64,000 nucleotides of DNA from an uncultured Gemmatimonadales bacterium (GCA_963779755.1 CAVZZO010000003.1:224001-288000); one strand, 5' to 3'. Positions 27,706 to 52,372 are shown, counted from the first letter of the stretch. Notes: generated by a model not told the origin, from the letters alone. Numbers and translations are program-made.

Positions 27706-27709
27706 TGGC

Positions 27710-32813: not shown

Positions 32814-32881
32814 TCCAGTTGACCTCCGATTCCTGTTCCGTGACGAGGCCGGCCCTGAGACCAGTCCCCGAGGCCCTGCGA

Positions 32882-32956
32882 TGGGCGAAGAGGGATTCGA
32901 ACCCCCGACTTCCTGCGTGTAAGGCAGGCGCTCTGAACCGGCTGAGCTATTCGCCC
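32882..32956 (-). tRNA. tRNA-Val (TAC)
   Basis: GGGCGAA/TTCGCCC acceptor stem, anticodon arm CCTGC-CTTACAC-GCAGG, GGTTCGAATCC T-arm; CCA not encoded. Confidence 0.96.
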
Positions 32957-32982
32957 GGGTCACCAGCCCGACTGGCCCTGCG

Positions 32983-33174
32983 CTACAGCGCAAGCCCGAG
33001 CGGGATCAGGACACAATAGCCCACCACCAGGAGCGCTGCCGCAACCGTCGTGCCGCCTGCCTTGAGCAGGAGAAACCCGGCAATGACAACGAGCAAACCC
33101 AGCCCGAGCACGAGAAGATTCTTGCGGCCGAGCAGGGCGCTGGGTCGGGATGGGGGGGCAGAAGGTGCTGGCAT
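32983..33174 (-). CDS. Small two-TM membrane protein (DUF3098-like)
   Basis: 63 aa; G.KN...L.LG...I.GF.L then a second TM LLVVGYCVLIP. Confidence 0.65.
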   Translation of the reverse strand: MPAPSAPPSRPSALLGRKNLLVLGLGLLVVIAGFLLLKAGGTTVAAALLVVGYCVLIPLGLAL

Positions 33175-34256: not shown

Positions 34257-35110
34257 GGCGGTGCTCCTCCGGTCGCCACCAGGTCCAGCAGTTCCTTGCA
34301 GCGTTTGCCCCAGGGGTTGAAACGGTTCGCCTTGGCGCCGTCGGTCCAGGCCGCGGTGGCCTGGTCCCGTTCACCGGCAAACCAGAGCGCGCGACCCAGT
34401 TCGTACCAGGCCTCGGTGAGATTGGGGCCCAGTTCAAGCGTCTTGCGGAAGAAGACCTGGGCGTCTTCGAACATCTCGCGCTCCAGGTAGACCAGCCCGA
34501 GGTAGAAATGGGCGTAGAGCGTGGCCTTGCGGTCGTTATCCAGCCGGATGGCCTTGGAGAGATGCTCGATCGCTTCGCCGAAGATGCGCTTCTTGAGGCA
34601 GATATAGCCCACATTGATCCGGGCCAGCGAATTGGCCGGCTCGCGCATCAATACCTTGCTGAAGGTCGCGAGCGCGTCGTCGTAATCCTCGTGGAGCATC
34701 TGGGCCCAGCCCAGCAGCGACTGCGCCTGGATATCGCCGGGCGCCAGCGTGAGTGCCCGGGTGAGGGCCTGGATGGCGCCGTCATAGTCGCCCAGCGAAA
34801 TGAGGCTCCAGCCCTTCTCGATGAAGGTCGAGGCACCCAGATGGTCGGCGTGCATCATGGGCCGTGCGCCGGTGAACTTCGGCGCCTGGGCGTTTTCGGC
34901 TTCCCCCGCGGCCTGCTTGTACCGTTCCACCAGGGTGCGAATATCCTCCTTGAGGCGCGTCAGTTCGCCCAGCGTACCGTCAACTTCCTTGAACAACCCG
35001 ATGATATCGCGTTTGATCCCTTCCCGGCTCGCCTGGCTGGAGACCTGCTCCAGGGCCGACGCGATCGCGTCGTACCGCCGGCGGAGCGCGGACGCGTAGC
35101 TGTCGTTCAC
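34235..35110 (-). CDS. Coiled-coil + TPR protein of the chemosensory locus
   Basis: N-terminal heptad helix then about 5 TPRs (e.g. ARINVGYICLK, AHFYLGLVYLE, AWYELGRALW); GTGA overlap with cheW. Confidence 0.85.
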   Translation of the reverse strand: MNDSYASALRRRYDAIASALEQVSSQASREGIKRDIIGLFKEVDGTLGELTRLKEDIRTLVERYKQAAGEAENAQAPKFTGARPMMHADHLGASTFIEKGWSLISLGDYDGAIQALTRALTLAPGDIQAQSLLGWAQMLHEDYDDALATFSKVLMREPANSLARINVGYICLKKRIFGEAIEHLSKAIRLDNDRKATLYAHFYLGLVYLEREMFEDAQVFFRKTLELGPNLTEAWYELGRALWFAGERDQATAAWTDGAKANRFNPWGKRCKELLDLVATGGAPPRPSVPA

Positions 35111-35604
35111 TGGCCGGCCTCCCCGGGCGCGGCCCCCGCCACCGGCTCCAGGCCGTCGGCCAGCGCGAGGCGCTCCTCCGAGTTCAGCAGCCGGTTGGCA
35201 TGCAGCAACAACACGGTGCGCTTCCCCCGCGGCAGGATCCCCGCGATGTATTCGGCCGCGAGCCCGCGCACCATGGGCGGCGGCGCGCTGATGGCCGTGC
35301 TGTCCACCCGGGCGACTTCGACCACCCGGTCCACCGTCACCGCCACCCGATGGTCGTCCAGCTGGAGCACTACCAGCCGGGTCTCGTCGGTGTGGGGGGC
35401 CGGCATCTCCAGCCGCCGCCGGAGGTCCACCAGCGGCACCACACCCTCACCATAAGGAATGACCCCCTCGAGGAAGGCGGGAGCCCGGGGCAGCCGGGTC
35501 GGCTCCTGCCAGCGGAGGATCCGCTCCACCTGAAAGATGTCGACCCCGAACTCCTGCGGCCCTACCTCGAAGATCACGATCTGCACCTGGTCATCGGTCA
35601 GCAT
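35107..35604 (-). CDS. cheW: Chemotaxis coupling protein CheW
   Basis: F.VG..EFGVDI..V..I, P.APAFLEGVI...G.VPLVDLR, VDRV.EV, PP. Confidence 0.9.
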   Translation of the reverse strand: MLTDDQVQIVIFEVGPQEFGVDIFQVERILRWQEPTRLPRAPAFLEGVIPYGEGVVPLVDLRRRLEMPAPHTDETRLVVLQLDDHRVAVTVDRVVEVARVDSTAISAPPPMVRGLAAEYIAGILPRGKRTVLLLHANRLLNSEERLALADGLEPVAGAAPGEAGQ

Positions 35605-36031
35605 GCGGGACCTCCATTGCTGTCAGGCGCGTTGCCAGCGCCGCGATATCCAGAATCGGGATCCAGGCGTCGTCCCGGCGGGTCACCGCCACCGCCCAGG
35701 GCAGCGTTTCGCCGGCCGGGACGGGCAGCAGCTCACCCTGCACCACCGCCTCGGCCTCATCGACATCCAGCAGCAGCAGGGCACTGCCCAGCCGCAGCAG
35801 GATGCCCATCGTGTCCGCCCGGGCCGGCGGCTCCGGATCCTGCAGCAGCTGCCGCAGGTCGACGACCGGCACCAGGTGACCGCGCACCGGCGCCAGGCCG
35901 CGGCATGCCGCCGCCGCGGCCGGCACGGGGTGAATGCCGGCAATGTCCTCTACGGCCACCACATGCTCCAGCGGCAGCCCCACCCGGCGCCTCCCCAGAC
36001 GCACCAGCAGGAATTCCAGCGCTCCGGTCAT
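35591..36031 (-). CDS. cheW: CheW-like protein
   Basis: GL.L..V..V, VP......GL..VRG.LVPVVDL; more divergent copy. Confidence 0.82.
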
Positions 36032-37098
36032 GAATGATCCAGACGCTCGAGCAACTGCATGACCCGGGCCGCGATCTCGCCCAGCGGGAGAACCTGGTCG
36101 GCGCCTCCGGCCTGCCGCGCTGCGTTGGGCATGCCGTAGACCGTAGCCGTGGATCGGTCCTGCGCGATCCCGAAGCCGCCTGCGTTATGGATGGCCCGCA
36201 GGCCGGCCGCGCCGTCCCGGCCCAGGCCGGTCAGCACCACCCCGACCGCGCGCCGTCCAAACTGCTCTGCCACCGATTGGAACAGCGGGTCGGCGGCGGG
36301 CCGCACGCCCCAGATCGACGGGCCCTGCTCCAGCCGCAGCACGGGGCCATCCGGCCCGGCCGCAACCCGCAGGTGGTAGTCGCCCGGAGCCACGAAGGCG
36401 CTGTCGGCCAGGAGCGGCATACCGTCCTCCGCCTCGACCACCCGCAGGGCGCTCTGCCCCGCCAGGCGCTCGGCCAGGCCGCGGGTGAACGCGGCCGGCA
36501 TATGCTGCACGATAACCACGGCCGCTCCCCGGCCCAGGCTCAGGCAGGGCACCACCTCCGCCAGCGCGCGAGGGCCGCCGGTGGAGGCGGCGATCGCGAC
36601 ACAGGCGCTGGCCAGATCGTGACCGGCGCTCTTCCGGGGCGGTGCCTTGCGGGGCCGGGCCAGCACCGGCAGGCGCCCGATGTCCGCCACCAGGGCCGCA
36701 TCCAGCGCCGCCACCAGGGCCGGCCCCAGGCGCTCCAGTCCATCCCGGCCGGCGCGGGGGTTCTTGTCCACGATTTCCACCGCGCCGAGTTCCAGCGCAC
36801 GGATGGCCGCCTCGCTGCCGGTGCCGGCGTGGGCGCTGAAGACCACGATCGGGCGCGGGACCTCGGACATGATGTAGCCGATCGCCTCCAGGCCGTCGAC
36901 CTGGGGCATTTCCAGGTCCATGACCACGATGTCGGGCTGGTACTGGTGCACCTTGCGCAGTCCGTCGAGGCCGTTGCGGGCCGTGGCCACCACCCGAAAC
37001 CTGCCGGTACGGGCGAGCAGCTCGGTCAGGACCTGGCGCACCAGGGCGCTGTCGTCCACGACCAGCACCGAGGTGTGCTCAGAGGATTTGTTCACCAC
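36028..37098 (-). CDS. cheB: REC-containing methylesterase CheB
   Basis: VVDDS...R, MDLEMP receiver; ASTGGP, VQHMP and LTGLG.DG catalytic Ser-His-Asp; VYGMP. Confidence 0.95.
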
Positions 37099-37567
37099 GC
37101 GCCGCCGTCCGCACGACCACCTGTCCGTTGGCCACCCGGAACCAGACGGAGCGGCCGCAGTCGCCGCCGACCAGCTCCCGGATGAGCGGGATGCCGTGCC
37201 GGTGCAGTACCTCGCGGGCCGCCACCAGGTTGCGTTCGCCCATCTGGATGGTGCCGGGGGTGGAGAGATTGGTGAACAGCGACGCCCCGCCCACCAGCCG
37301 GGCGGTCACCCGGCGCGGGTTGGCGCCCGCGGCACCCATGGCCTCGAGCAGCGCCGGAACGGCGGTGTGGGGCACCCGTCCCGGGCGATCCGACCGGCGG
37401 TTGAGCGACAGACTCGGCAACATGACGTGCGCCAGCCCGCCCACCCGGGTGGCCGGATCGTGCAGGAGGATGGCGACACAGGAGCCCAGCCCCAGGGTCA
37501 CCAGCACCGTCCCCTCGGAGCCGACGGCCAGCTCGGCCACCCCGACGATCGTTTCGCAGTCGCTCAC
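37079..37567 (-). CDS. cheD: Chemoreceptor glutamine deamidase CheD
   Basis: GTG 37567; TLGLGSCVA (catalytic Cys), GGLAHVMLP (His), LVGGA, GERN, VGG..GR. Confidence 0.93.
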
Positions 37568-38388
37568 CGGAGCCGCCGGTAAATGCGTTCCCGGGTGTCC
37601 ACCAGCTCCAGGTGCTCCCTCACCTCTCCCAGCACCGTCTCCACCTTGCCCAGCACCAGATATCCTCCCGGCTGCAACGACCGGAGGAACAGACCGAAGA
37701 GACGGTCCTGCATCGGCCGGTCGAAATAGATCAGAACATTGCGGCAGATGATCATGGCATAGTCGTGGTGCGGCGGCTCCTCCCGGGTGAGATCCAGCCG
37801 CCGGATGCTCACCCGGCGCCGCAGGGCCGGCAACACTTCCCGCCCCCTGTCGCGTTCGCCGGTGAAGGCCGCCAGGAGCTCCGGCGGCGTCTCGCTGAAG
37901 GCATCCTCGGGATACCAGCCGCTCCGGGCGCGATCGAGCGAGACCCGGTCGATGTCGGTGGCATCGATGGCCAGCCGGTCCAGCCACTCGGGATGCCCCG
38001 CCTCCCGGGCGGTCCGCTCCGCCAGCATGGTAAGCGAATAGGGTTCTTCTCCCGAGGCGCACCCGGCGCTCCAGATCCGCAGCGGTGTCCAGGGCCGCTG
38101 CCACAGTGCCGGCAACACTTCGGCCTCCAGCCGCTGCCACAGCTCCGGATTGCGGAAGAAGCGCGTCACGTTGATGGTCAGGGCGTCGGCCAGGCGCTGG
38201 TACTCCCCCGGCTCCGCTTCGAGGATGCGCAGGTATTCCTCGTACGAGGCGGCGTTGGTCGCCCGCATGCGCACCGCAATGCGCCGCCTCAGGCAGCGCG
38301 GCTTGTAGGCATCGGCCGCCAGGCCCGCGCCCTCGGAGATCTTCCGCGCCAGCCGCAGGAACTCCTCCTCCTCGCCTGTCGCGCTCAC
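37564..38388 (-). CDS. cheR: Protein-glutamate O-methyltransferase CheR
   Basis: GTG 38388; YK...LRRR, LTINVT.FFR, IWSAGCASGEEPYS, ATDID, ICRNVLIYFD. Confidence 0.95.
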   Translation of the reverse strand: MSATGEEEEFLRLARKISEGAGLAADAYKPRCLRRRIAVRMRATNAASYEEYLRILEAEPGEYQRLADALTINVTRFFRNPELWQRLEAEVLPALWQRPWTPLRIWSAGCASGEEPYSLTMLAERTAREAGHPEWLDRLAIDATDIDRVSLDRARSGWYPEDAFSETPPELLAAFTGERDRGREVLPALRRRVSIRRLDLTREEPPHHDYAMIICRNVLIYFDRPMQDRLFGLFLRSLQPGGYLVLGKVETVLGEVREHLELVDTRERIYRRLR

Positions 38389-40001
38389 GCCCCAACCTTG
38401 AGCGTCTCGAGATTGCTGCGAGCCAGTTGGTGCGCCGGGTTGAGTGCCGTGGCGCGGCGCCAGCACTCCCGCGCGCGATCCTGGTCGCGCCGCCGGTAGG
38501 CGATATTGCCCAGCTTGAAATAGAGATCGTCGCCCAGTTCCGGATCGAGCTTGGCGGCGCGCTCGTACGACTCCAGCGCTTCGTCGTAGCGTCCCGCACG
38601 GTAGAGCAGATCGCCCATGTTCTTGGAGGCCTGGGGCAGCGTCGGCTCTTCCTCGAAGGCGGCCCGCGCCATGACCTCGGCCGCCGCCGTATCGCCGGTG
38701 AACTCGAGCAGGGCCGCAAGATTGTTCCGCAACACTGCATTGGCGGGCCACGCGTCGACGCCCGCCTGCGCGTGCTCCACCGCCGCCTGCAGCTCGCCCG
38801 CGCCGGCCGCCGCCAGGCCCGCCGCCCAGAACCAGAGCGGCGGCGGCGGCCGCTCGCCCAGCAGCTCGCGGGCGCGCGCCAGCCGGCCGGTCGCCACCTC
38901 ATGCTCCTCCCGTTTCAGCGCGGCAATGGCCCAACTCAGCATGTAGCGCGCGTCGTCCCGGGCACGAGTCACCGCCTCGGCGTAGGCGGCCTCGGCCTCT
39001 TCGATCCGTCCCAGCTGTTCCAGCGCCACCCCCAGGTTATGCAGCGTAGGCGCGCTGGCGCCGCCCGCCTCGGAGGCCTGGCGAAACAGCTGCAGCCCTT
39101 CCTCCCAGCGCGCCTGCCGCAGCGCGATGAGCCCCAGATGGAACACGGCGCCGGGCTTGCCCGGCCGCAACTCGTGCACCCGGCGAAACTCGCGCTCGGC
39201 TTCGTCCAGCATGCCGGTCTTGTAGAAGGCGATCCCCAGGTTCTGGTGCTCCTCCACCCGGCCCTCCGCCGCGCGCGGCGGCGCGGCGACGCTGGTGCCG
39301 ACGCGGTGCACGAACCCCGCCGTGATCAGCCCGTACAGCGCCTTCCCCGCTTCGAACTCCACCAGTCCGGAATCGTCCATCAGTTGCTGCACGTCGCGAC
39401 TGCCGTCCAGCAGCGGGAGCAGCCGTTCCTGTTCCGGCGAGAGCGCCACGGAGGCGCCGTCCAGGTGTTCCTGATCGGCCGCGAAGATCATATCGAAGCT
39501 GGGGATCTTCTTCTCGATGAGGCTCCATTCATCCACCCGCCGGGCCCCTTCCAGCAGCAGCGACTCGGGGTTGATCTGAACCAGGAACTCCTCCGTCTCC
39601 GGCCGAACCCCCGCCTCGAAGTTGAAGGTGCCCGACGACCAGGTGAAGAGATAGTAGACGGCCTCTTCGATCTGGGTCCGGATATGCCGGCGCAGCTCAT
39701 CCTGATTCAGGGCTCCCATGTCGACCAGAATCCGGCCCAGCCGGCGGTGCCGGTCGGCGTGCTGCTCCTCGATGGCACGCTCCAGCTGCTCGGCCGAGAT
39801 CCGGCCCGCCTTCACCAGCATGTCGCCCAGACGGTCGCGCCGGTTGACGATCGACGCGTAGCAGATCCGCCCCTGGTCGAAGTAGATGTACCCGAAGTTG
39901 TGGCGGTCGGCCACGGCCAGGCACCCGGTCTTGCGGCCCAGCGACAGCAGTTGCAGCACGTCCGGCAGACTGGCTTCGCGGAGACTTCCCTTGATCGCCA
40001 T
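38385..40001 (-). CDS. DUF4388-type domain + tandem MshEN-like motifs + TPR protein
   Basis: ATG 40001; G.L....L.DVLQLL...KTG.L, two RLGxxLVxxG..xxxxLxxxIxxQ repeats, W..G.F.F, LLEGARRVDEW, then about 7 TPRs. Confidence 0.85.
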   Translation of the reverse strand: MAIKGSLREASLPDVLQLLSLGRKTGCLAVADRHNFGYIYFDQGRICYASIVNRRDRLGDMLVKAGRISAEQLERAIEEQHADRHRRLGRILVDMGALNQDELRRHIRTQIEEAVYYLFTWSSGTFNFEAGVRPETEEFLVQINPESLLLEGARRVDEWSLIEKKIPSFDMIFAADQEHLDGASVALSPEQERLLPLLDGSRDVQQLMDDSGLVEFEAGKALYGLITAGFVHRVGTSVAAPPRAAEGRVEEHQNLGIAFYKTGMLDEAEREFRRVHELRPGKPGAVFHLGLIALRQARWEEGLQLFRQASEAGGASAPTLHNLGVALEQLGRIEEAEAAYAEAVTRARDDARYMLSWAIAALKREEHEVATGRLARARELLGERPPPPLWFWAAGLAAAGAGELQAAVEHAQAGVDAWPANAVLRNNLAALLEFTGDTAAAEVMARAAFEEEPTLPQASKNMGDLLYRAGRYDEALESYERAAKLDPELGDDLYFKLGNIAYRRRDQDRARECWRRATALNPAHQLARSNLETLKVGA

Positions 40002-41953
40002 CAGCGGGCCTCCTCGATCAGGCGGTCCGCCGGCTCGGGCCAGTCCCAGACCAGCTTCTCCCGGCTGCGCAGGCCGCTCGCGACCGACACCACCACCCCG
40101 CTGAACCGCGGTCCGCTGCGCCGCGGGGTCCGTCCGGGAGCGCCCTCGAGGACCTCGCGCGCCAGCGCCGCTGTCGGCGCCTCCTGCCGCGCTTCCGCCG
40201 CCTGGAGCACCCGCTGCACCACGCCCTGGAGCGTTCGCACCGAATCCACCGTGCGGCCTGCCAGGTACTCGGCCAACCCCGCATCGCAGCTGCCCAGGTG
40301 GTCGCGCAGCAGCCGTTCCAGCACGGCCTGGCGCACCTCCCGCTCGGGCGGCGGCAGATGCACCACCAGCCCGCCCTCCAGCCGGCTCACCAGACGCGGC
40401 TCCAGGCCGTCGACCTCGGTGAGCGGCGAGACGGAGGTGAAGACCATCTGCCGGCCCGCCTCGGCGAGCTCGTTGAAGAGCCAGAACAGCTCTTCCTGGG
40501 TGCGATCCTTGCCTGCCAGCAGGTGGATGTCGTCCAGCAGCAGCGCGGTGATGCGGCGGTAGCGGGTGCGCCACCAGCCGATCCGGTCCCGGTCGATGGC
40601 GCCGATCAGCTCATCCACGAACTCGGCGGCGGTGAGACACGCCACCACCGTGTTCTCCCCGGCGCCGAGCGCGTTGCCGATGCCGTGCAGCAGATGGGAC
40701 TTGCCGGTGCCGCTGGGCCCCACGATGACCAGCGGGTTGTAGCGGCTTCCCGGCTGCTCCGCCACGGCCTGGGCGGCCCGGGCGGCGATCCGGTTGCCCG
40801 GCCCCTCGGCAAAATCCGCCAGTTGCCAGTGCGGCGACGGCCGCGGCGGGGGCGCCACGCCCTCCCGCGCGCTGGCCACCAGCGCCTCCGCTTCCTCCAG
40901 GCGATCGGGATCGCGGAAGACGGCATGGCCGCCCAGCGCCGTGTCAAGGTCGGTGGCTTCCGCCTCCAGGACACGCAGTCGCTCGACATCGTCGGCGTAG
41001 CGGGCCAGCAGCCCGTCCGGGTCGGGCGGCATGTCCTCTTCCAGCAGTGCGTCCAGCCGCGCCGTGCGGTAGCCTTCGCCCTCCCAGCGGAGCACCGCCT
41101 CGGCCACCCGTCCGCGCCACGCCTCCACCTGCTGAGCCACGGTGCTGGTGATTTCCGACAGGAAACTGGAGAATTCGTCGCTCCGCTCCGCCGGCGCGTC
41201 CTCGTCCTCGGGGGCAGCCGGGGGCGCCACCGCCGTCGGCCGGCCCAGCACGCCGGGCACTTCCTCCGACCGTAGGGGCTCGGTGCGGACGGCCTGGTAG
41301 GCGATCAGCCGGTTCAGCGCGCCGATCAACTCGCGCACGTTGGTGTACTGCGGAGCCGCCACCGCTTCCAGCACGCCGGCCGCGAAGGTCACGTTGCGCT
41401 CCTCCGCGTGGCGGCGGACGATGGCAACGCGCGTTTCGTAGTCGGGCGCGGTGATGTCGATGACCAGCCCGCCGGCGAAGCGCTGAACCAGCCGTTCGTC
41501 CAGTGCCTCGATGTCCTCCGGACCGCGATCGCTGGTGAGAACGATCTGATGCCCGGCGGTCTGCATGATGTTCACCAGCCGGAGCAGCTCGGCCTGCATC
41601 TCCCGCCGCCGGGCCAGAAACTGGACGTCGTCCAGCAGCAGCAACCCGACCTCGCCGTACCGGCGCCGGTAGGCTTCACCCTGCCCCGCCGCCAGCGCGG
41701 CGTGATAGGCCTCCACCAAGTCGTCCAGCGTCTGGTATTCGCAACTGAGCCCCGGATTGATCGCCTGTGCCGCCTGGGCGATGGCCATCAGCAGGTGGGT
41801 CTTGCCCAGGCCCGGGCCGCTGTAGAGGAACAGCGGGTTGTAGACGTTCCCCGGCGACTCGGCCACTGCCTTGGCCGCGGTGACCGCCAGCCGGTTGGCG
41901 GCGCCCACCACGAACGTCTCGAAGCGCAGCCGCGCGTTGATGCCGCCGGTCAT
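40001..41953 (-). CDS. Tandem DnaA-type AAA+ domain protein (lacks DnaA domain I and the HTH domain IV)
   Basis: Two copies of F..G..N..A...YNPL..G..G.GK(T/S)HL...LLDD...RL..R..GGL...VR.L.G. Confidence 0.9.
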
Positions 41954-42552
41954 GCCAGCGCCTCCCGCGAAGCCAGCCGGCGCAGGACCACCTCGGAAAT
42001 GCCCTTGAGGGTCTCGAACACCCCGCCCCCGTGCAGGGCGTCGGCTCCAAAGCTCGGCACCCCGCGGAAATTCAGGACGTCGTCGAGGTCGGGAGGGGTG
42101 AGGATCAGGTCCCGGGGAAGATCCTGTTTGTTGTACTGGATCACCATGGGGAACTGGCGTACGTCCATCCCCTGCCGCAGCAGGTTGGCCTGGAGGTTCT
42201 GCAGGCTTTCCAGGTTCTCCTCCAGCCGCCGGCCCTGGCTGTCGGCCACGAAGACCACGCCGTCGGCGCCCTGCAGCACCAGCTGCCGGGTAGAGTTGTA
42301 GTACACCTGCCCCGGGACGGTGTAGAGCTGGAAGCGGGTAGTGAAGCCGGAGATGACCCCCAGGTCCAGCGGCAGGAAATCGAAGAACAGGGTCCGGTCG
42401 GTATGGGTGGCCAGCGAGACCATCCGCCCGCGGCGGCCCTCCGGCACCCGGCCGAAGACGTACTGCAGGTTGGTCGTCTTGCCGGACCGTCCGGGCCCGT
42501 AGTAGACGATCTTGCAGGTAATCTCGCGGGTCGTGAAGTTGACGAGCGACAT
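41950..42552 (-). CDS. mglA: MglA-family small Ras-like GTPase
   Basis: [50 protein letters not shown]. Confidence 0.95.
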
Positions 42553-43017
42553 CTAGCGTCCGAAGAGCGTGCGAAGGCTCGTGTTGAGGTCGCGTTCGAA
42601 ATCGGCTGGCAGCACTTCGCTGGGCCGGGATTCCGGCGGCGGCGCTGCCCGGGCCAGCTGTGCCACCAAACGGTTGAAGAACAGTTGCACGATGCCCAGG
42701 GAAGTCTCCGGACCGAAGACTACGAAGCCGATCCAGCTCCCGCGCGGGGTGTCGAACTGGGCCAGAAAATGTCCCTGCCGGGTCCCCTGGTGCGCCATCG
42801 CGCTGAAGGGCGGCCAGGCCAGCATCCGTGCCAGTTCCTGGGCGCTGGCCACGATGCCGGCGCCCAGTGCCGCCGCCGACATGACGTCCAGCGCGCGGGT
42901 GAACCCGTGCTGCGCAATCACCTGGCCCGACCCGGTCATGATCAGGGTCAGCCGGGCCGAGGATTCGGCCAGGAAATCGTTCAACGGTTCCACCACCCAG
43001 GATTCTACCGCCCGCAT
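42553..43017 (-). CDS. mglB: MglB-like roadblock/LC7 protein (probable cognate GAP)
   Basis: Directly upstream of mglA; GQVIA..G, AAL.AG..AS..ELA..L, HQG, T.LG.V.L, and an acidic amphipathic C-terminal helix (DFERDLNTSLRTLF). The start may be 43029. Confidence 0.8.
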   Translation of the reverse strand: MRAVESWVVEPLNDFLAESSARLTLIMTGSGQVIAQHGFTRALDVMSAAALGAGIVASAQELARMLAWPPFSAMAHQGTRQGHFLAQFDTPRGSWIGFVVFGPETSLGIVQLFFNRLVAQLARAAPPPESRPSEVLPADFERDLNTSLRTLFGR

Positions 43018-43367
43018 CAACTCACCCATTCAGCCAGGCGGCCGAGATCCAGCCGCGCCCGTCCGACGTTGACTCCACGATCGGCAATAAGCACCGTAAC
43101 CAGTTCCGTCCCGGCCGGCGCCACCAGCAAGAGTCCGCCGCTCGCCTGCACCAGCACGAACTGGGGCGCCCCCGCCCCGGCCCCTTCCGCCGCGGCGTCC
43201 AGCCGGCGCACCAGGCTGCTCGCCAGGGCCGCCAGGGCGGCGCCATCGACGCCTTCCATCAGCGATTCCGCGACCACCAGGCCGTCGGCCCGCGACGCCA
43301 GCAACGCCCCGCGCGCCCCGCGGATCCGGATCAGCGGCTCGAGCGCGGCCTGGTAGTCCGGCGTCAT
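43017..43367 (-). CDS. Stand-alone roadblock/LC7 protein (MglC-like)
   Basis: ATG 43367; 116 aa; GALL....DGLVV, AALAALA..L, VNVG.ARL pattern. Confidence 0.8.
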   Translation of the reverse strand: MTPDYQAALEPLIRIRGARGALLASRADGLVVAESLMEGVDGAALAALASSLVRRLDAAAEGAGAGAPQFVLVQASGGLLLVAPAGTELVTVLIADRGVNVGRARLDLGRLAEWVS

Positions 43368-44203
43368 GCACTCCCCTCCAGCCAGCGCCGCGCCGCTTCG
43401 GCCGCCCGGGTGGCCAGCAGCGCCAGCCGCCCCATCGGCATTCCGGCCTCGCGACGCACCAGCAGGAGCGTCTCGCCGGTGGGCGGCGCCAGAAAGAGAT
43501 TCGCCTCCGGCGCCTCGACGGCGATGCCCTGCCATTCGCCCAGGCCGAGCAGGCGCACGGTCCGCTCCACCTCGCGGGAGACGCCCGCCAGTTCCGCCGC
43601 GACCTGATCGTCGCGCTCCGCGATGCCGTCGCCCAGTGTCCCCTCCAGCCGCAGGCCACCGCTGTCCAGCAGGAGGAAGCCGGGGCCGCCCAGATCGAGC
43701 GGGACGGCCGCGATGCCAGGCACCGCGGATGCCGGCGGCGCTTCAGGCGCCGGCTGGTCCGGCGCCCGCAGCGGCGCGGCCTCTCCCTCGCTCAACCCGG
43801 CAGCCAGCTGTTCCCGTACCCGGCTCAGCGCGGTCTGCAGCGCCTCGTCCGCCGGCAGGCTGCGCGCGGCCACTTCGAGGTGGTGTTGCGCGCTGGGGAG
43901 ATCCCCGGCCATAAAATAGAGGTAGCCCACGCCTTTGTGCGCCCCGGGATGCACCGGGTCGAGCCGCAGGGTCATATCCCATTCGTCGAAGGCGCTCTCC
44001 AGCTCGTGCTGATCCACCAGGATCCGGGCGTAGAGATCGTGCGCATCGGGAAGATTGGGATAGCGGGTGAGGCCCTGCCGGGCCACCTTGGCGGCGGCGT
44101 CCAGGCGGCGCGCCCGGCGCAGCGCCTCTCCCAGTTCCAGAAAAATCAGGCTCGACGGGTCGGCGGCCAGCTGCGCGGTGAGCCCGCGGATGTCGTCACT
44201 CAC
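43364..44203 (-). CDS. TPR + roadblock-like fusion protein
   Basis: GTG 44203; DPSS..F.ELGEALRR TPRs, a Pro/Ala linker, then LLLDSGGL...AAELAGV....LG.W..I.VE...P.G.L.L roadblock-like C-terminus. Confidence 0.75.
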   Translation of the reverse strand: MSDDIRGLTAQLAADPSSLIFLELGEALRRARRLDAAAKVARQGLTRYPNLPDAHDLYARILVDQHELESAFDEWDMTLRLDPVHPGAHKGVGYLYFMAGDLPSAQHHLEVAARSLPADEALQTALSRVREQLAAGLSEGEAAPLRAPDQPAPEAPPASAVPGIAAVPLDLGGPGFLLLDSGGLRLEGTLGDGIAERDDQVAAELAGVSREVERTVRLLGLGEWQGIAVEAPEANLFLAPPTGETLLLVRREAGMPMGRLALLATRAAEAARRWLEGSA

Positions 44204-45338
44204 GGCCGCCTCGCAGGGCTCGCTCCAGGGTGTAGGCTGCTTCGCGGGCGGAACGGACCTCGAGCGAGTGCGCCGCTTCCTCCGGCGACAGATCGGGCAT
44301 TGCGCTCCAGCGGTCCCAGCTCTCGACCGCCTCCAGAAAAAGGCCGCGGGCGACCAGGCTATAGCCCAGCAGCCGCAGCGCCGGAACGCACTGGAGATCG
44401 AGCTGCAGCGCCCGCTGCAACGCCGCCGTGGCCTCCTGGTGATGTCCCTCGGCCAGGTGGGCGCGGCCCACCGCGGCATGCGCCAGCGGCTCGTCCGGAT
44501 GCCGCGCCACGGCCTCTTCCGCCAGGCGGCGCGCCGTCTCGGGCTGCCCCCGCAGCAGTTCGTCCTCCGCCCGGGCGATCAGCATGGCCAGTTCCCGGCC
44601 GCCCGGCGGCTCGGCCGGCCGGGACACCGGATCCTCCAGCATGAGGATCCCGGTGCTGGCGAGCCCGAAGAGCGTCTTGGCCACCTCGAACTCGGAACGG
44701 CGTAGATGCTGGGAGAGATCCCGCACGTCCTGGCGGCCGTCCACCATGGCCAGCACTTCCCACTCGAACGGAATGAGGTCGAGACGGGAGTCGTTCCCCT
44801 GCGCCAGCCGGGGAATGATGCCGAGGTGGGGAATACGCGTCTCGATGCGGGACCATTCGTCGATCCGCCGGGCCGCTTCCATCAGCAGCGCCTCGGTGGG
44901 GATTCGGATGTCCGCTTCCGTCGGCAGCTCGCCGGGATCGCCCTCCTCGAAGGAGAAGTACCCCTCCGACCAGCTGAGCAGCTCGAAGACGACCTCCTCC
45001 ACCTGGCCCCGCACCCGGCGCTCCAGCTGCCGCCGGGAGATCGCCCCGATGGAGACCAGGATTTCGCCCAGCTTGCGGCCGTCGCCGTTTTCCTGCATGG
45101 CACGGGCGCGAGTCAGGTCTTCTTCCGAGAGCTTGCCGGCCCGGAGCAGCAGCCCGCCCAGCGGGTGCGGGTTGCTGCGGATCTCCGCGCCCACCACACC
45201 TCCCCGCTCGAAGTACACCGTGCCCGCGTTGAGCCGGATCTCCGAGCGCACCTTGAGCGCTCCCGTCTTCCGGCTCAGGTCCAGCAGCTGGAAGACGTCG
45301 TGGATGCTGAGCTCGCGCAGCGGGCCTTCGATCGCCAT
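44196..45338 (-). CDS. DUF4388-type domain + MshEN-like motifs + TPR protein (paralog of 38385-40001)
   Basis: MAIEGPLREL..HDVFQLL...KTG.L, PLG/KLG repeats, W..G.F.F, LMEAARRIDEW, TPRs. Confidence 0.85.
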   Translation of the reverse strand: MAIEGPLRELSIHDVFQLLDLSRKTGALKVRSEIRLNAGTVYFERGGVVGAEIRSNPHPLGGLLLRAGKLSEEDLTRARAMQENGDGRKLGEILVSIGAISRRQLERRVRGQVEEVVFELLSWSEGYFSFEEGDPGELPTEADIRIPTEALLMEAARRIDEWSRIETRIPHLGIIPRLAQGNDSRLDLIPFEWEVLAMVDGRQDVRDLSQHLRRSEFEVAKTLFGLASTGILMLEDPVSRPAEPPGGRELAMLIARAEDELLRGQPETARRLAEEAVARHPDEPLAHAAVGRAHLAEGHHQEATAALQRALQLDLQCVPALRLLGYSLVARGLFLEAVESWDRWSAMPDLSPEEAAHSLEVRSAREAAYTLERALRGGRE

Positions 45339-48018: not shown

Positions 48019-48639
48019 CTACGAGAGGCGAATGGCGTCGAAGACGGCCCGGAGGGAGGCGAGGTCAGGCATGAGCAGGAAATGGCCCCGGAGCCCGCGG
48101 TTTTCTTCGGAGAAGACGAACTCGGTCTCCAGACAGAAGACGAAATCCCGTTCGTACCCGAAGTTCAGATAGGTGCTGGTGAGCACGGCGCCGGCCAGGT
48201 CCACCACCAGCCCCGGAACCGAGGGAAGCAGCATCATCCCCATGAAGTCGCTCAGGGCGTTGAGATAGGCGCTGCTCAGGATGTTCCCCGCTTCCTTGAG
48301 CCCCGACTGTTCCATCTCGCCGAATTCGGTGGTGGTGCCCATCTCGCGGCGCAGCAGGATGTCGCACAGCTCTTCGGCGGAATCGCGGGGAAAGACGATC
48401 ATGGTCCGGCCCGTCAGGTCGCCCATCATGTGCATCAGCACCGCGGCGACGATGTCGTCGGGACTGCCCAGCAGCCGGCAGACCTCCTCCAGCCGGGTGA
48501 TGTTCACCTCGGGCACCGAGATCATGATCTTGCGGCCGGTCATCTGGGACAGGGCGGTGGCGGCGTGCCCTGCCCCGATGTTGGCGACCTCGCGCAAGGC
48601 ATCGAGTTGCAGCTCCTGCAGGTTCCGGATGTCGTCCAC
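48019..48639 (-). CDS. cheC: CheY-P phosphatase CheC
   Basis: Two D/S-x3-E-x2-N active-site motifs (DALREVANIGAGHAATALS; SGLKEAGNIL...Y.NAL...P). Confidence 0.94.
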   Translation of the reverse strand: MDDIRNLQELQLDALREVANIGAGHAATALSQMTGRKIMISVPEVNITRLEEVCRLLGSPDDIVAAVLMHMMGDLTGRTMIVFPRDSAEELCDILLRREMGTTTEFGEMEQSGLKEAGNILSSAYLNALSDFMGMMLLPSVPGLVVDLAGAVLTSTYLNFGYERDFVFCLETEFVFSEENRGLRGHFLLMPDLASLRAVFDAIRLS

Positions 48640-48647
48640 AGGGCCTC

Positions 48648-50525
48648 CTAGACCAGCGCAGCCGCATCGAGAATGAGCGCGGGCTCGCCATCCGCCAGGA
48701 TGGTCGCCCCGCTGAAGACCGGCAGCATGCCGCGCGGCGGATCGAACGGTTCCACGACGATCTCCTGCTGCCCCAGCAGCGCATCGACCACCACCGCCGC
48801 GCGCTGGCCCGCCGACTCCAGGATGATGGTCGGCCGCCGGGGCGGCAGCTCGCCACCGGCCACCCGCAGGAGGTCGCGGATGTGGCGGGTAGGAATCACC
48901 GACTGGCGCAGCACCAGCGCCTCCCGGCCACCCATGGTGGTGAGCCGGCCGCCATCGTATTCCACCGTTTCCGCCACGTGGGCCAGCGGCACCGCGTAGC
49001 GCTCCGCGCCCACCCGGGCCAACAGCACCCGCACCACCGCCAGGGTCACCGGCAGGTACAGGGTGAACGTGGTGCCCCGGCCCATTTCGGTCGCGATGGC
49101 CACCGAGCCGCCCAGGGCCCGCACCTGCGCCACGACCGCATCGATCCCCACGCCGCGGCCGGAGACGTCGGTCACCCGGGCGGCGGTGCTGAACCCGGGC
49201 CGCGCGATGAGCCGCAACAGGCCTTCGTCGCTCAGCGATCCGGCTTCGGCCTCCAGCACGCCGTCCTGCACCGCCCGCTGCACGATGCGCGCGCGATCCA
49301 GCCCGCGTCCGTCGTCCGCCACCCGCACCGCCACCCCGCGCTGGTCCCGGGTGGCGCTCAGGATGATGCGGCCGACTTCCGGCTTGCCCTTCCGGCGGCG
49401 CTCGGCCGGGCTCTCGAGGCCATGATCGAGCGCGTTGCGCAACAGGTGAAGCAGCGGGTCGCCCAGTTCATCCAGGATGGCGCGGTCCAGCTCGATATCG
49501 CCGCCCTCGAGCAGCAGCTCGACCCGCTTGCCCAGCTGGCGCCCGAGATCGCGCACCACGCGGGGAAAGCGGTCGAACACCTGCCATACCGGCGTCAGCC
49601 GGACCTGGATAACGTCGGCCTGCAGCTCCGACACCAGCCGGTGCATGCGGGCGGAGACGGCTTCCAGCTCGGGCTGGGAGCGGGGCGCCACCAGCTCCTG
49701 CAGCCGCTGTTCCGCCACCACCAGTTCGCCCATGTTGTTCAGCAGCGAATCCAGCCGGCGCAGGTCGACCCGGATGGAGCGGACCTCGTCTACCGTCTCT
49801 TCCACCGGGGCGTGCACCGGCATCTCGCCGATGGTCACCGCGTCGACATCGCCCGCCGCCCGGATGGCCGCCTGTACCGCCTGGTCGCTCAGGTCGGTAT
49901 CCAGCCGGAACGAGAACTGCCCGTCGAATTCCGCCTGCTCGAACGCCGCCACCGCGGGCCGGATGCCGCTCACCGACCCCAGGGCCTCCGCCCGCTTCAG
50001 TGCCAGCGCCGCGCGCGCCCCCCGCATGACCGCGTCGGGCCGGATGGCCACCCGCACCAGGCGGCCGGTGGGGCCGCGTGGCGCCGGCGCCTCGTGCAGA
50101 TCGTGCACCTCGCGCACCGCGCGCATCTCGCCGGTGTGCGACCGGGTCGCCTGGGCCGCCTGGCTCAGCGCGGTGATCAGCGCGGTGAAGTCGAGCTGAT
50201 CGTCACGACCCGCCACCGCCTCGTCCAGCGAGCCTTCCAGCGCGTCTACCGCGCGGAACAGCAGGTCGATCTGGTCCGGGTCGACCGCGGCCACCCGCTC
50301 GCGCAGCAAGGCGAGCAGGTCTTCGGTCTGGTGGGCCAGCTCCGCCACGCGGCCGTAGCCCATGGTGGCCGCCATGCCCTTGAGCGTGTGCATGGCCCGG
50401 AAGATCCCCGCGATGGGCGCCGGCTCCATCGGCACCCGCTCCAGCTCCAGCAACAGGCGGTTGCAGTCCTGCAGGTGCTCGCGGCCCTCGGTCAGGAAGA
50501 GCGCGGCGTAGCGGGAGACGTCCAT
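48648..50525 (-). CDS. cheA: Chemotaxis histidine kinase CheA
   Basis: HPt FRAMHTLKGM, P2-like region, IRV...LD.L.N..GEL, HLLRNALDHG, DDGRG, GFSTA..VTDVSGRGVG, C-terminal CheW domain. Confidence 0.97.
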   Translation of the reverse strand: MDVSRYAALFLTEGREHLQDCNRLLLELERVPMEPAPIAGIFRAMHTLKGMAATMGYGRVAELAHQTEDLLALLRERVAAVDPDQIDLLFRAVDALEGSLDEAVAGRDDQLDFTALITALSQAAQATRSHTGEMRAVREVHDLHEAPAPRGPTGRLVRVAIRPDAVMRGARAALALKRAEALGSVSGIRPAVAAFEQAEFDGQFSFRLDTDLSDQAVQAAIRAAGDVDAVTIGEMPVHAPVEETVDEVRSIRVDLRRLDSLLNNMGELVVAEQRLQELVAPRSQPELEAVSARMHRLVSELQADVIQVRLTPVWQVFDRFPRVVRDLGRQLGKRVELLLEGGDIELDRAILDELGDPLLHLLRNALDHGLESPAERRRKGKPEVGRIILSATRDQRGVAVRVADDGRGLDRARIVQRAVQDGVLEAEAGSLSDEGLLRLIARPGFSTAARVTDVSGRGVGIDAVVAQVRALGGSVAIATEMGRGTTFTLYLPVTLAVVRVLLARVGAERYAVPLAHVAETVEYDGGRLTTMGGREALVLRQSVIPTRHIRDLLRVAGGELPPRRPTIILESAGQRAAVVVDALLGQQEIVVEPFDPPRGMLPVFSGATILADGEPALILDAAALV

Positions 50526-50529
50526 CGGC

Positions 50530-50892
50530 TCAGCCGAGCACGCGCTGCACCGCCTCCAGCACCCGGGACGGCTGGAAGGGCTTCACCACGAAGTCCTTCG
50601 CCCCCGCCTGGATGGCTTCCACCACCAGCGCCTGCTGGCCCATGGCGCTGCACATCAGGATCTTGGCGTCCGGATCGTCGCGGCAGATCTCCCGCACCGC
50701 GTCGATGCCCCCCATATCCGGCATGACGATATCCATGGTGACCAGATCGGGCTTGAGCTGGCGGTACTTGTCCACCGCCTGCCGTCCGGTCTCGGCTTCT
50801 CCCACGACTTCGAAGCCCGCCTGCGCGAGAATGTCGCTGATCATCGTGCGCATGAAGATCGCGTCATCGCACACCAGCACCGTGTTGGCCAC
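50530..50892 (-). CDS. cheY: Response regulator CheY (Bacillus/Thermotoga-like)
   Basis: DDAIFMR, TMDIVMP, CSAMGQ, GAKDFVVKPF. Confidence 0.93.
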   Translation of the reverse strand: MANTVLVCDDAIFMRTMISDILAQAGFEVVGEAETGRQAVDKYRQLKPDLVTMDIVMPDMGGIDAVREICRDDPDAKILMCSAMGQQALVVEAIQAGAKDFVVKPFQPSRVLEAVQRVLG

Positions 50893-50934
50893 GAAAGCCC
50901 TCCCTGCAAGTTGCGCCGTTTGGCCGGATGTCCG

Positions 50935-51372
50935 TCAGGCCGAGTACACCGGCCCCAGGACCGTTTCGGTATCCAGCACCACGAACACGCGATCGTCCCA
51001 CCGCCCCACCGCCTGCACCAGCCGCGGGTCTACACCCGGCAGGGTGTCCCGCTCGTCCAGTGCGGACGCGGGCAGGTGCAGGAGATCGTGCACCAGATCC
51101 ACGATGAGCCCGAGGAGACGTCCCCCCACGGCCAGCAGCAGGATGGACGGCTCCACCGCCGGCGGCCCGTCCCGGCCCAGCATCTGCCGCCCGTCGGCGA
51201 CGGTGATGAGCCGCCCGCGGACGTTCACCAGCCCGAGCACACCGGCCACCGCGCCAGGAATCCTGGCGGGGGGGTGGTAGGGAACGATCTCCTGCACGAT
51301 GCCGGTGGGGGCCGCGCAGAGGAGATCGCCTACCTGGAAGACCAGTAAAGACACCGTCTCGGCGTCAGCCAT
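50935..51372 (-). CDS. cheW: Chemotaxis protein CheW
   Basis: ATG 51372 overlapping the rluA stop; VQEIV, IPGA...VLGLVNVRG, GLIVD.V. Confidence 0.9.
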   Translation of the reverse strand: MADAETVSLLVFQVGDLLCAAPTGIVQEIVPYHPPARIPGAVAGVLGLVNVRGRLITVADGRQMLGRDGPPAVEPSILLLAVGGRLLGLIVDLVHDLLHLPASALDERDTLPGVDPRLVQAVGRWDDRVFVVLDTETVLGPVYSA

Positions 51373-52372
51373 GTTCTTTAAAGAAACCAAGATACCGCAG
51401 GTTGGGGGCACCGGCAACCAGACCGGATTGGACTAGTGCAGTTTCCAGCAGACCGCGCAAATCGCCCGGCCATTCCGCGGTGAATTCCAGCGCCTCCCCG
51501 GAGACCGGGTGACGCAATTGCAGCCATGCCGCGTGCAAGGCCTGGCGTGGCGCGAGGCGCTCCAGCCGCTCCGCTGCGATGCGCTGAGTGCCTGACATAC
51601 GCCGACTTCCGCCCCCGGCATAGACCGGATCCCCGATGACGGGATGCCCCACATGATGGAGGTGGACCCGGATCTGGTGCGTTCGCCCGGTGTGCAGCTC
51701 CAATTTGAGCAGGTCACAGAGCGCGAACCGTGCCACCACATGCGCCTCTGTCCGGGCTGGTCGACCGGTGGAGAGCACGGCCATGCGCTTGCGATCGCGC
51801 GGGTTGCGGCCGATGGCCGCATCGATGGTCAGGGGGGAGGCATCCAGGTGGCCCCAGCAGAGCGCGGCGTAGCGCCGGCTGATCCGGCGGGCGGCAAGCG
51901 CCGCGCCCAGGCGCCGGTGGGCCAGGTCGCTCTTGGCTACCAGCATGAGCCCCGAGGTGTCGCGGTCCAGACGGTGAACGATGCCGGGACGTCCTTCACC
52001 GGCCCGGGACAGCGCCGTCCCCCGGGCCGCCAGGGCATTGACCAGGGTATCGTCCCAGTGTCCCGGCGCGGGATGCACCACCAGCCCGGCCGGCTTGTCG
52101 ATGACCAGCAGGTGCTCGTCCTCGAAGACGACGGTCAGGGGAATGTCGGCGGGGCGAAGCTCGCGCGGCGGCGCGGCCTCGGGCAGGGTCACCTCCACCA
52201 CCTCGCCCCGTTCCAGCAGGCGGCTGGCGCGGGCCACCGTGCCATCGACGGTCACCGCCCGGGCGGCTATGAGCCGCGCGGCCTGGGTGCGGGAGAGCTG
52301 CAGCTGATCGGCCAGGAATCGGTCGAGCCGCTCGGTGACGGCGGCCGTCACCGTGAAGCGGTGCTCACTCAT
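51365..52372 (-). CDS. rluD: RluA/RluD family pseudouridine synthase with an S4 domain
   Basis: RLD.FL S4 domain, KPAGLVVHP, IVHRLDRDTSG, TGRTHQIRVH, GDP.Y, QALHA. Confidence 0.9.
   Translation of the reverse strand: MSEHRFTVTAAVTERLDRFLADQLQLSRTQAARLIAARAVTVDGTVARASRLLERGEVVEVTLPEAAPPRELRPADIPLTVVFEDEHLLVIDKPAGLVVHPAPGHWDDTLVNALAARGTALSRAGEGRPGIVHRLDRDTSGLMLVAKSDLAHRRLGAALAARRISRRYAALCWGHLDASPLTIDAAIGRNPRDRKRMAVLSTGRPARTEAHVVARFALCDLLKLELHTGRTHQIRVHLHHVGHPVIGDPVYAGGGSRRMSGTQRIAAERLERLAPRQALHAAWLQLRHPVSGEALEFTAEWPGDLRGLLETALVQSGLVAGAPNLRYLGFFKEHG

Follow-up and report, generated by a model that had tools for sequence, protein, structure and literature searches.

A twin DnaA-type AAA+ ATPase encoded next to mglA in a conserved operon of Gemmatimonadota

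Introduction

The AAA+ ATPase module of DnaA is regarded as dedicated to replication, be it in DnaA itself, in Hda or in the related helicase loaders. Hda (HdaA), which inactivates DnaA together with the sliding clamp, has a DnaA-related AAA+ module with an arginine finger and is devoid of DNA-binding domains. A different set of proteins has been described around the Ras-like polarity GTPase MglA, the partners of which in Myxococcus, Thermus, and Bdellovibrio include MglB, MglC, RomR-RomX, SgmX, and TPR proteins. To our knowledge, none of these partners is an AAA+ ATPase, and we know of no described tandem of AAA+ modules of the initiator clade. Here, we report on a gene from an uncultured Gemmatimonadales bacterium that lies directly downstream of mglA and encodes a protein of 650 amino acids with two DnaA-type AAA+ modules, D1 and D2. 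This protein is referred to below as the twin ATPase, and the stretch of 64,000 nucleotides that was analyzed (GCA_963779755.1, CAVZZO010000003.1:224001-288000) as the window.

The twin ATPase gene is a real and strongly conserved gene, and its product is a cytoplasmic protein that has neither the origin-binding parts of DnaA nor the clamp motif of Hda. It probably signals rather than starts replication. The explanation that we favor, and to which we give about an even chance, is that it serves the MglA/MglB polarity pathway as a switch or scaffold driven by ATP and acts as an effector or regulator of MglA-GTP. We regard it as a case in which a known ATPase module has entered a new architecture and a new cellular pathway: in this phylum, the DnaA module is under strong selection in a setting other than replication, in which it was duplicated, lost the DNA-recognition domains, and became coupled to mglA. 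Should the role as MglA effector or regulator prove true, the twin ATPase would represent the first case of an AAA+ protein partnered with a Ras-like GTPase in prokaryotes and would show how nature can connect an ATP switch to a GTP switch.

Among the papers listed by full-text searches, none had a title or abstract that describes a tandem DnaA-domain protein or a DnaA-like MglA partner. The association of PATAN genes with MglA/MglB is in print (PMC4316618); the gene-neighborhood text of that paper contains 0 mentions of DnaA, and its supplementary table S2 may list such a neighbor. The twin ATPase family is likewise unmentioned in the available sections of PMC4316618, PMC5742627, and PMC5109545. 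In databases, the names given to the family are either generic or wrong.

Results and Discussion

Two DnaA-type modules without the origin-binding domains of DnaA

A Pfam scan of the window open reading frames (ORFs) reported 13 families at E<=0.01. Bac_DnaA (PF00308) was matched in two stretches of the 650-amino-acid protein (E 4.3e-89), and DnaA_N (PF11638) and Bac_DnaA_C (PF08299) were not among the 13 families. When domains I and IV of Escherichia coli DnaA were compared with the whole window by tblastn, the best E values were only 0.72 and 3.6, respectively, and no second DnaA-like gene was detected in the window by this method. The clamp-binding patterns QL[SP]L, QL.L.[LF], and QL[SD]LF were found in 0 of 50 family members, either within the first 40 residues or anywhere in the protein; the motif is visible in the E. 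coli Hda that was used as a reference. An earlier interpretation of this DNA (the sequence-only reading) had proposed two DnaA-type AAA+ domains, the loss of the sensor I Asp in the second of them, and the absence of DnaA domain I, of the helix-turn-helix domain IV, and of an Hda-type clamp motif. All of this was borne out: the motifs that it quoted, including NVREL in domain 1, SVRTL in domain 2, and REKLVWDWP in the tail, are all present in the translation, and Val508 occupies the sensor I position of D2.

Profile scores place both modules close to DnaA. The whole twin ATPase scored 447.5 bits with the NCBIfam model for DnaA (TIGR00362), for which the curated equivalog cut-off is 343.9 bits. 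Scanned singly, D1 (residues 1-238) and D2 (residues 373-650) scored 243.1 and 208.7 bits, respectively, and each is below this cut-off; the whole protein exceeds it because the two module scores sum. The scores with the Hda model TIGR03420 were 166 bits for the whole protein (cut-off 194.8), 82.4 bits for D1, and 88.2 bits for D2, and those with the models for IstB (NF038214; 97.3 bits, cut-off 200) and DnaC (NF005931; 30.6 bits, cut-off 357) were also below the respective cut-offs. A profile of D1 scored E. coli DnaA with 256 bits and Hda with 55 bits. The closest structural reference is domain III of Bacillus subtilis DnaA (8bv3), which D1 matched in sequence with an E value of 1.9e-48 and onto which (chain 8bv3_A) an AAA+ module superposed in Foldseek with a TMt of 0.94 and a root-mean-square deviation (rmsd) of 1.5 A. 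Foldseek matches to p97 and Rix7 were only generic (TM 0.25-0.35, rmsd 22-27 A).

Both modules of the window protein share with DnaA domain III the AAA+ fold, Walker A and B, box VII, the arginine finger, and sensor II. However, the twin ATPase differs from DnaA in that it has no domain I, domain II, or helix-turn-helix domain IV, contains two modules per chain, and has an added middle domain and tail. Furthermore, D1 is devoid of the H/B motifs for single-stranded DNA (ssDNA), and the gene forms part of an mglA/che operon instead of lying at dnaN/oriC. The differences from Hda are equally clear: Hda is a single module of approximately 230 amino acids, whereas the twin ATPase has 650 amino acids with two modules and additional parts, scores below the Hda cut-off, lacks the clamp motif, is found in a different genomic context, and has modules from both of which Hda is separated by a long branch in the tree described below.

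Unequal conservation of the two modules

Both modules were mapped onto the E. coli DnaA reference, and residues were counted in 50 tandem members of the family. In the reference, V211 and R245 represent the H and B motifs for ssDNA, R281 box VII, R285 the arginine finger, R227 and L290 the AID motifs, D269 sensor 1, and R334 sensor 2, and K243 is among the functional residues (as given in the sections of PMC5742627 that were available). In the window protein, D1 has all catalytic residues, namely, Walker A K51/T52, the acidic D77, Walker B D108/D109, the sensor I D142, R154, the arginine finger R158, and the sensor II R207, and it has H84 and E118 at the H and B positions. D2 keeps Walker A K418/S419, Walker B D474/D475, R520, the arginine finger R524, and the sensor II R573, as well as I450, K482, and R484 at the positions of the DnaA H/B motifs and, in addition, R466. 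Its losses are Ala443 at the E204-equivalent position, which we take to have a role in hydrolysis in DnaA, and the above-mentioned Val508.

The same asymmetry was seen across the family. The ATP-site triad of Walker A Lys, Walker B Asp, and sensor II Arg is intact in 45/50 D1 and 31/50 D2 modules, an acidic residue is present at the E204 position in 39/50 and 4/50, and the sensor 1 Asp in 35/50 and 15/50, respectively. The order is inverted for the arginine finger (31/50 in D1 and 39/50 in D2), which is found in both modules of 27 members; a further 12 members have it in D2 only and 4 in D1 only, and 7 lack it altogether. It is also inverted at the ssDNA positions: I or V at the H-motif position (V211) occurs in 0/50 D1 but 24/50 D2 modules, and Arg at the B-motif position (R245) in 1/50 D1 modules, of which 37/50 have an acidic residue there, but in 29/50 D2 modules. 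Among the canonical DnaA representatives, I or V is present at the H position in 9/9 and Arg at the B position in 4/9. Further DnaA residues maintained family-wide in D2 are R227 (34/50), R281 (33/50), and R285 (39/50).

A naturally occurring short form without D2, described below, provides a second view of D1. In these proteins Walker A/B are present in 121/121, sensor 1 and R281 each in 120/121, and the finger and sensor 2 each in 118/121, and they are also without the H/B residues. These 121 short forms are a redundant set in which one clade is dominant; the finger Arg is present in 7 of 10 representatives.

This residue pattern suggests that D1 is a universal hydrolytic engine that is not built for DnaA-style ssDNA binding and that D2 is a finger-donating regulatory half-site. 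The counts point to a tendency and not to a rule. There are precedents for such an arrangement: ORC/Cdc6, the clamp loaders, and the type II tandem AAA+ proteins p97, NSF, and ClpB, which are hetero-oligomers or ring hexamers of the classic clade, resemble the twin ATPase in their unequal catalytic conservation, with one site being hydrolytic and the other regulatory or finger-donating.

A middle domain and a tethered tail that are specific to the family

Along the protein, D1 is followed by an acidic disordered stretch, by a middle domain of three helices, and by D2, after which a flexible basic tether leads to the conserved tail (Table 1). The AlphaFold2 model of the whole twin ATPase, made with the 50-sequence alignment, had a mean predicted local distance difference test (pLDDT) value of 89.4 and a predicted template modeling (pTM) score of 0.51. 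The sequence-only reading had described an acidic helical linker between the modules. Its acidic character was confirmed, with 7 D/E and 6 P in residues 233-263, but this stretch is disordered, and the helical part corresponds to the separately folded middle domain. The latter also folded with confidence on its own (pLDDT 90.4, pTM 0.77) and contains 21 columns that are invariant across 17 Gemmatimonadota sequences, including the motifs W..GEG[YF]R..RL and FRDPD.

No NCBIfam match was obtained for the region between the modules (residues 239-371), no Pfam match for the middle domain even at E<=10, and no usable Atlas match for residues 262-372. In a Foldseek comparison of the middle domain with the folds in the PDB, 0 of 53 matches were at E<=0.001, the best having an E value of 3.6. 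As judged from these profile searches and from the predicted fold, the middle domain belongs to no known family. The possibility that the middle domain is what remains of DnaA domain IV or I after a head-to-tail fusion of two dnaA genes was also considered and received no support, the hhalign probabilities being 0.12% and 0.07%, respectively; the control comparison of domain IV with domain I gave 0.45%.

The tether differs in length among relatives. The tail that follows it had been noted previously as Trp-rich; it is indeed present, but it is more than a Trp-rich end, since it corresponds to a nearly invariant family motif, EK.VW.WP....R[LI][IV]EE, of which E632, K633, W638, P639, and E647 are each found in at least 90% of 50 members. 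This motif, for which there was no Pfam match at E<=10, is present in tandem and short forms alike, including 120/121 of the latter. In one relative of 897 amino acids (P0192), a long acidic and Ser-rich insertion into the tether separates D2 from an intact tail, which is the behavior expected of a tethered docking peptide. A low-GC tandem form of 647 amino acids (P0161) has no tail; of its two modules, the second resembles DnaA more closely.

The family is widespread in Gemmatimonadota and has a core without D2

A search with the full-length protein gave, among the matches listed, 119 other clusters of 609-694 amino acids with 60-91% identity and 93-100% coverage. Where named, these clusters are called "DnaA/Hda family protein [Gemmatimonadota/Gemmatimonadales]" at NCBI, and JGI annotates many members as "chromosomal replication initiator protein (DnaA)". 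In an exhaustive search of representatives, full-length relatives reached down to 33% identity; 56 of the best 150 representative matches had 590-720 amino acids, and most of these end in the tail motif. The nearest Atlas clusters have 593-663 amino acids, and Gemmatimonadota are their most common phylum. The family belongs to Gemmatimonadota wherever it is named, with the single exception of a relative from a metagenome-assembled genome (MAG) labeled Candidatus Cloacimonetes, which is 66% identical to a low-GC family member (P0185), the next named relatives of which are from Gemmatimonadetes.

With these 119 other full-length clusters and the 27 syntenic loci described below, the conservation of the twin ATPase is far beyond chance. 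The same two sets of data dispel the concern, raised in the sequence-only reading, that the tandem form might be an assembly artifact. In six of the loci (L018-L021, L026, and L027), fragmented tblastn matches were obtained for the twin ATPase as well as for several neighbors, which suggests assembly frameshifts rather than real gene decay.

The short form has approximately 385-456 amino acids, is composed of D1, the middle domain, and the tail, lacks D2, and looks complete. Examples are P0184, P0191, P0207, P0208, P0226, P0234, P0250, P0255, P0257, P0264, and P0389-P0503. A search with one of them gave more than 110 clusters of approximately 385-400 amino acids with the name "ATP-binding protein [Gemmatimonadota bacterium]"; contigs of 4.74 and 4.81 Mb carry some of the short forms. 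In other tandem lineages D2 is shortened or without the Walker A lysine. Since D2 is missing or degenerate in these relatives, the family core consists of D1, the middle domain, and the tail, and D2 is accessory; the second module is, as far as the compared proteins indicate, dispensable.

A conserved operon in which the twin ATPase gene follows mglA

The twin ATPase gene is preceded by GGGAGG, located 7 nt upstream of its start codon, and forms part of a series of genes of the same direction (Table 1). In the order of the minus strand, these are cheW, cheY, cheA, cheC/X, the gene for the 891-amino-acid TPR protein, a PATAN-TPR gene, the TPR-Roadblock gene, a Roadblock gene (Robl2), the mglB-like gene, mglA, the twin ATPase gene, a second PATAN-TPR gene, cheR, cheD, cheB, and two cheW genes. 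A TPR gene, an MA-type peptidase-like gene (33294-34139), a gene for a 648-amino-acid TPR protein (31047-32993) with a weak periplasmic-binding-like match, and the dcw cluster come next. The twin ATPase is hence encoded, like the MglA partners described in other bacteria, with mglA, mglB, and Roadblock, TPR, and PATAN genes. The identity of MglA was confirmed against solved structures, the E values being 2e-71 for Myxococcus xanthus MglA (6hjh) and 1.6e-66 for Thermus thermophilus MglA (3t12), and so was that of MglB (6h5b_B; Table 1). CheB was named from the ORF translation and CheY from its sequence, and neither by Pfam. The location of the DUF4388 match puts the likely start of the second PATAN-TPR gene at 39995, 5 nt past the stop of the twin ATPase gene.

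Table 1. Features of the twin ATPase gene and of its surroundings in the window (residue numbers are those of the twin ATPase)
Feature	Coordinates	Strand	Basis or remarks
dcw cluster: mraW, ftsI, murE, murF, mraY, murD, ftsW, murG, murC	18723-30850	-	Follows the che/mgl operon
cheR, cheD, cheB, two cheW	35107..38400	-	Downstream, same direction; Pfam CheR, CheD, CheW
Second PATAN(DUF4388)-TPR gene	38385..39995	-	DUF4388 E 2.4e-40 plus TPR
Twin DnaA-type AAA+ gene	40001..41953	-	650-aa ORF, ATG start; coordinates include the stop codon
Conserved C-terminal tail, candidate docking peptide, residues 632-650	40004..40060	-	
Basic flexible tether, residues 606-631	40061..40138	-	6 K/R, 0 D/E; pLDDT<50 at 610-630
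D2, second DnaA-type AAA+ module, residues 373-605	40139..40837	-	TIGR00362, residue mapping
Middle domain, residues 262-365	40859..41170	-	Helical bundle with high confidence in the model of the full protein
Acidic, Pro-rich disordered stretch, residues 239-263	41165..41239	-	pLDDT<50
D1, first DnaA-type AAA+ module, residues 4-232	41258..41944	-	TIGR00362, 8bv3 match, residue mapping
mglA, 200 aa, with R53, T78, Q82	41950..42552	-	Stop overlaps the twin ATPase start as ATGA
mglB-like Roadblock/LC7 gene	42553..43029	-	Robl_LC7; E 7.6e-08 to M. xanthus MglB 6h5b_B
Robl2 Roadblock gene	43017-43535 (longest ORF)	-	Robl_LC7 E 3.6e-09; true start probably further downstream
TPR+Roadblock gene	43364-44479	-	TPR plus Robl_LC7
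PATAN(DUF4388)-TPR gene	44196-45338	-	DUF4388 E 6.2e-34
891-aa TPR gene	45338-48013	-	TPR families
cheC/cheX	48019-48639	-	Pfam; upstream, same direction
cheA	48648-50525	-	Pfam; upstream, same direction
cheY	50530-50892	-	ORF sequence
cheW upstream of cheY	within 48019..51417	-	Pfam

A genome scan identified 27 loci, all from MAGs of Gemmatimonadota or Gemmatimonadales, the neighbors of which were assigned by tblastn with the window proteins. The mglB-like gene and mglA were directly upstream of the twin ATPase gene in 26/27 loci, and because the remaining locus (L005) begins inside the gene, this corresponds to 26/26 informative loci. The PATAN-TPR gene was directly downstream in 26/27 loci, with 44-74% identity, the exception being a locus (L023) that ends inside the gene. 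CheR and CheB were each found downstream in 25/27 loci; of the other two, L023 is truncated and L025 shows neither gene in its flank. A 4-nt overlap with the mglA stop was present in 21/22 loci when the first start codon was considered, and in the remaining locus (L016) it was present at the start indicated by tblastn. The Robl2 and TPR-Roadblock genes are also conserved in related loci, and the upstream PATAN-TPR and 891-amino-acid TPR genes are syntenic there. The most divergent locus (L025, 7947-13932; 52% identity) keeps TPR, PATAN, Roadblock, MglA, the twin ATPase, and PATAN-TPR, and CheR/CheB were not seen in the 4.4 kb downstream, showing that the mgl module and the ATPase can occur without adjacent che adaptation genes.

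Judging by the gene junctions, the whole operon block appears to be translationally coupled. The mglB-like gene ends one base before the start of mglA, the 891-amino-acid TPR and PATAN-TPR genes share base 45338, and Robl2, if read from Met57 (43367), would overlap the stop of the TPR-Roadblock gene by a 4-nt junction of the ATGA type (43364-43367).

No MCP receptor signaling domain was found in the scanned ORFs between 31047 and 51417. CheR, CheB, and CheD normally act on receptors, and the receptor of this system is therefore either encoded elsewhere or unconventional. With respect to replication, the cumulative GC skew declines steadily over the window and has no inflection, so that neither origin nor terminus is located in it; dnaN is not beside the twin ATPase gene, and no dnaA, dnaN, or origin signal was detected within the 64-kb window.

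A possible ATP-driven switch or scaffold in the MglA/MglB pathway

The following mechanism would be compatible with these data. D1 would be the hydrolytic engine. D2, which in the clade of the window protein is predicted still to bind ATP, and which has lost two catalytic residues while keeping the arginine finger and the residues of the DnaA oligomer interface, may be a regulatory half-site whose finger, within a head-to-tail assembly like that of DnaA, serves either D1 or the neighboring protomer. The middle domain and the tethered tail would be the family-specific interaction parts, and the tail may dock the assembly onto a partner, most plausibly a TPR, PATAN, or Roadblock protein of the operon. 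In this way, the ATP state of the twin ATPase and the GTP state of MglA could be read together. The model does not require the protein to act directly on DnaA or on DNA.

The sequence-only reading had placed the start of the gene directly downstream of mglA, with an ATGA overlap, and had proposed a link to MglA. The overlap was read at the junction, and both the adjacency and the 4-nt overlap are conserved, so that this part of the proposed link stands on firm ground. A physical contact with MglA is a more tentative matter. The twin ATPase (50-sequence alignment) was co-folded with MglA (18-sequence alignment) and GTP, which gave a score of 0.39 (0.37, 0.41, and 0.39 in the individual runs), the best of three controls having 0.00. 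The runs share at least 59% of contacts, with a partner pLDDT of at least 74. Of 157 solved complexes, 116 reach the mark used for this test, as do 2 of 215 mismatched pairs; with scores of <=0.60, however, only 18 of those 157 complexes and both of the passing mismatches do so, and the custom alignments and the accompanying ligand make this calibration approximate. The verdict is one of weak support: the odds of a direct MglA contact may be modestly raised, and nothing more, because the co-fold result adds to the strong prior provided by the conserved translational coupling.

Several observations weigh against a function in the MglA/MglB pathway. Operon membership is no proof of physical or functional coupling. 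The co-fold gave no interface, and a pass at a score of 0.39 is wrong in the majority of cases unless a good prior exists. The modules are unusually DnaA-like, with 42% (D1) and 38% (D2) identity to E. coli DnaA and 36% between D1 and D2. The D2 modules of the window clade keep I450, K482, R484, R466, R520, and R524 at positions that contact ssDNA or DnaA in E. coli DnaA (according to the available sections of PMC5742627), and these retained residues would fit a DNA- or DnaA-directed activity. Finally, both modules are without an arginine finger in 7/50 members, and the relative placement of D1 and D2 in the AlphaFold2 model is unreliable, as indicated by the pTM of 0.51.

Alternative functions

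The alternative that survives best, which we consider unlikely, is a regulator of replication, the modules of which would join genuine DnaA in an assembly or occupy origin ssDNA and cap, poison, or stimulate the filament under the control of MglA/Che. The family-wide retention in D2 of residues of the DnaA-specific interface and of ssDNA contacts speaks for it (roles of the residues according to the available part of PMC5742627). So does the fact that each module is nearer to DnaA than to Hda, and that the operon is directly upstream of the dcw cluster. Since Gemmatimonas is able to divide by budding, a link between polarity and replication would be plausible. However, D2 is absent from the common short form and degenerate in several tandem lineages, some of which have no Walker A Lys. 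The universal module D1 has I/V at the H position in none of the 50 members and an acidic residue at the B position in 37, the short forms being alike in this respect. In addition, the clamp motif and domains I and IV are absent, the window holds no dnaA, dnaN, or origin signal, and the middle domain and tail have no counterpart in DnaA or Hda. The covalent dimer capping or poisoning the DnaA filament that the sequence-only reading had put forward received no direct support, and the short form, the residue losses in D1, the family-specific parts, and the genomic context argue against it as the core function; the other possibility offered there, a repurposed ATPase of the polarity system, fits the data better than the DnaA-filament idea.

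A more far-reaching version of such a role is that the DnaA-derived ATPase physically links the Ras-like polarity GTPase to replication, by joining DnaA or origin ssDNA via D2, so that polarity, for example, during budding or a change of direction, gates initiation across the phylum. We consider this quite unlikely. If the twin ATPase does still touch DnaA, polarity would be linked to replication.

It is decidedly unlikely that the twin ATPase is an adaptor or input hub of a chemosensory array, that is, a scaffold or input for the array whose Trp-containing tail recruits Che enzymes. This idea draws on the surrounding operon, in which che genes flank both sides in the same direction and encode CheA, CheY, three CheW, CheR, CheB, CheD, and CheC/X, on the conservation of CheR and CheB downstream in 25/27 loci, and on the lack of an MCP domain in the ORFs scanned between 31047 and 51417. 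C-terminal pentapeptides of receptors recruit CheR and CheB, and the tail of the twin ATPase, which sits behind a flexible tether, may be analogous. However, the tightest and most invariant neighbor is mglA, with its 4-nt overlap, and not a che gene; the divergent locus L025 combines the mgl module and the ATPase with a downstream flank without CheR/CheB; and the Pfam scan revealed no resemblance to receptors or to CheW.

That the twin ATPase is the actual replication initiator of the organism in an unorthodox form is highly improbable, even though the whole protein is above the DnaA equivalog cut-off (447.5 vs 343.9 bits) and many members are labeled DnaA by JGI: the cut-off is met only by summing two modules that score 243.1 and 208.7 bits alone, domain I and the DNA-binding domain IV are absent, the gene is not beside dnaN in a 64-kb window without a GC-skew inflection, and the NCBI name is "DnaA/Hda family protein" and not DnaA. 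Cultured Gemmatimonas genomes have a canonical dnaA. An IstB/DnaC-like helper ATPase of a mobile element or an antiphage defense ATPase, to which weak scores for IstB NF038214 (97.3 bits) and for PADLOC mad8 (33.5 bits) and AriA (17.2 bits) might point, is effectively refuted by the conserved chromosomal operon, since the synteny is fixed across 27 loci without a transposase or defense partner, the scores are below the cut-offs or confined to the generic P-loop, and the 54 plasmid records that were matched, all via ordinary dnaA-like genes, contained no tandem form and covered at least 80% of the query in 0 cases.

Origin of the tandem and consequences for annotation

D1 and D2 each form a coherent group, and the internal branching of the two groups is largely parallel, which indicates that both modules have traveled together as one gene. 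As the identities given above indicate, both have stayed under DnaA-like constraint. In a quick maximum-likelihood tree that contained 10 canonical DnaA rows (the 9 best-scoring representatives and E. coli) and a single Hda as outgroup, D1 and D2 were placed together against the canonical rows with an SH-aLRT of 86, and E. coli Hda was on a long branch. The phylogeny of each domain against DnaA and Hda, which the sequence-only reading had called for, set both modules apart from Hda and grouped D1 with D2. The latter is less secure: a tree that forces D1 to group with DnaA was 6.2 log-likelihood units better than that of the free search and was not rejected (p-AU 0.56), so that an origin of D1 and D2 by one internal duplication is only one of the deep orders that the trees allow. 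Overall, the most economical reading is that the MglA/MglB pathway acquired a DnaA AAA+ module early in Gemmatimonadota or in a relative, and that this module was later duplicated, in many lineages, into a catalytic and regulatory pair.

The summed TIGR00362 score of the tandem is likely to be a source of misannotation and of wrong origin calls in the phylum. Together with the DnaA labels at JGI, it could mislead automated annotation and dnaA-based origin prediction in Gemmatimonadota. The searches also returned two very long proteins, of 1876 (P0221) and 1990 (P0223) amino acids, that contain a DnaA-type module matching D1.

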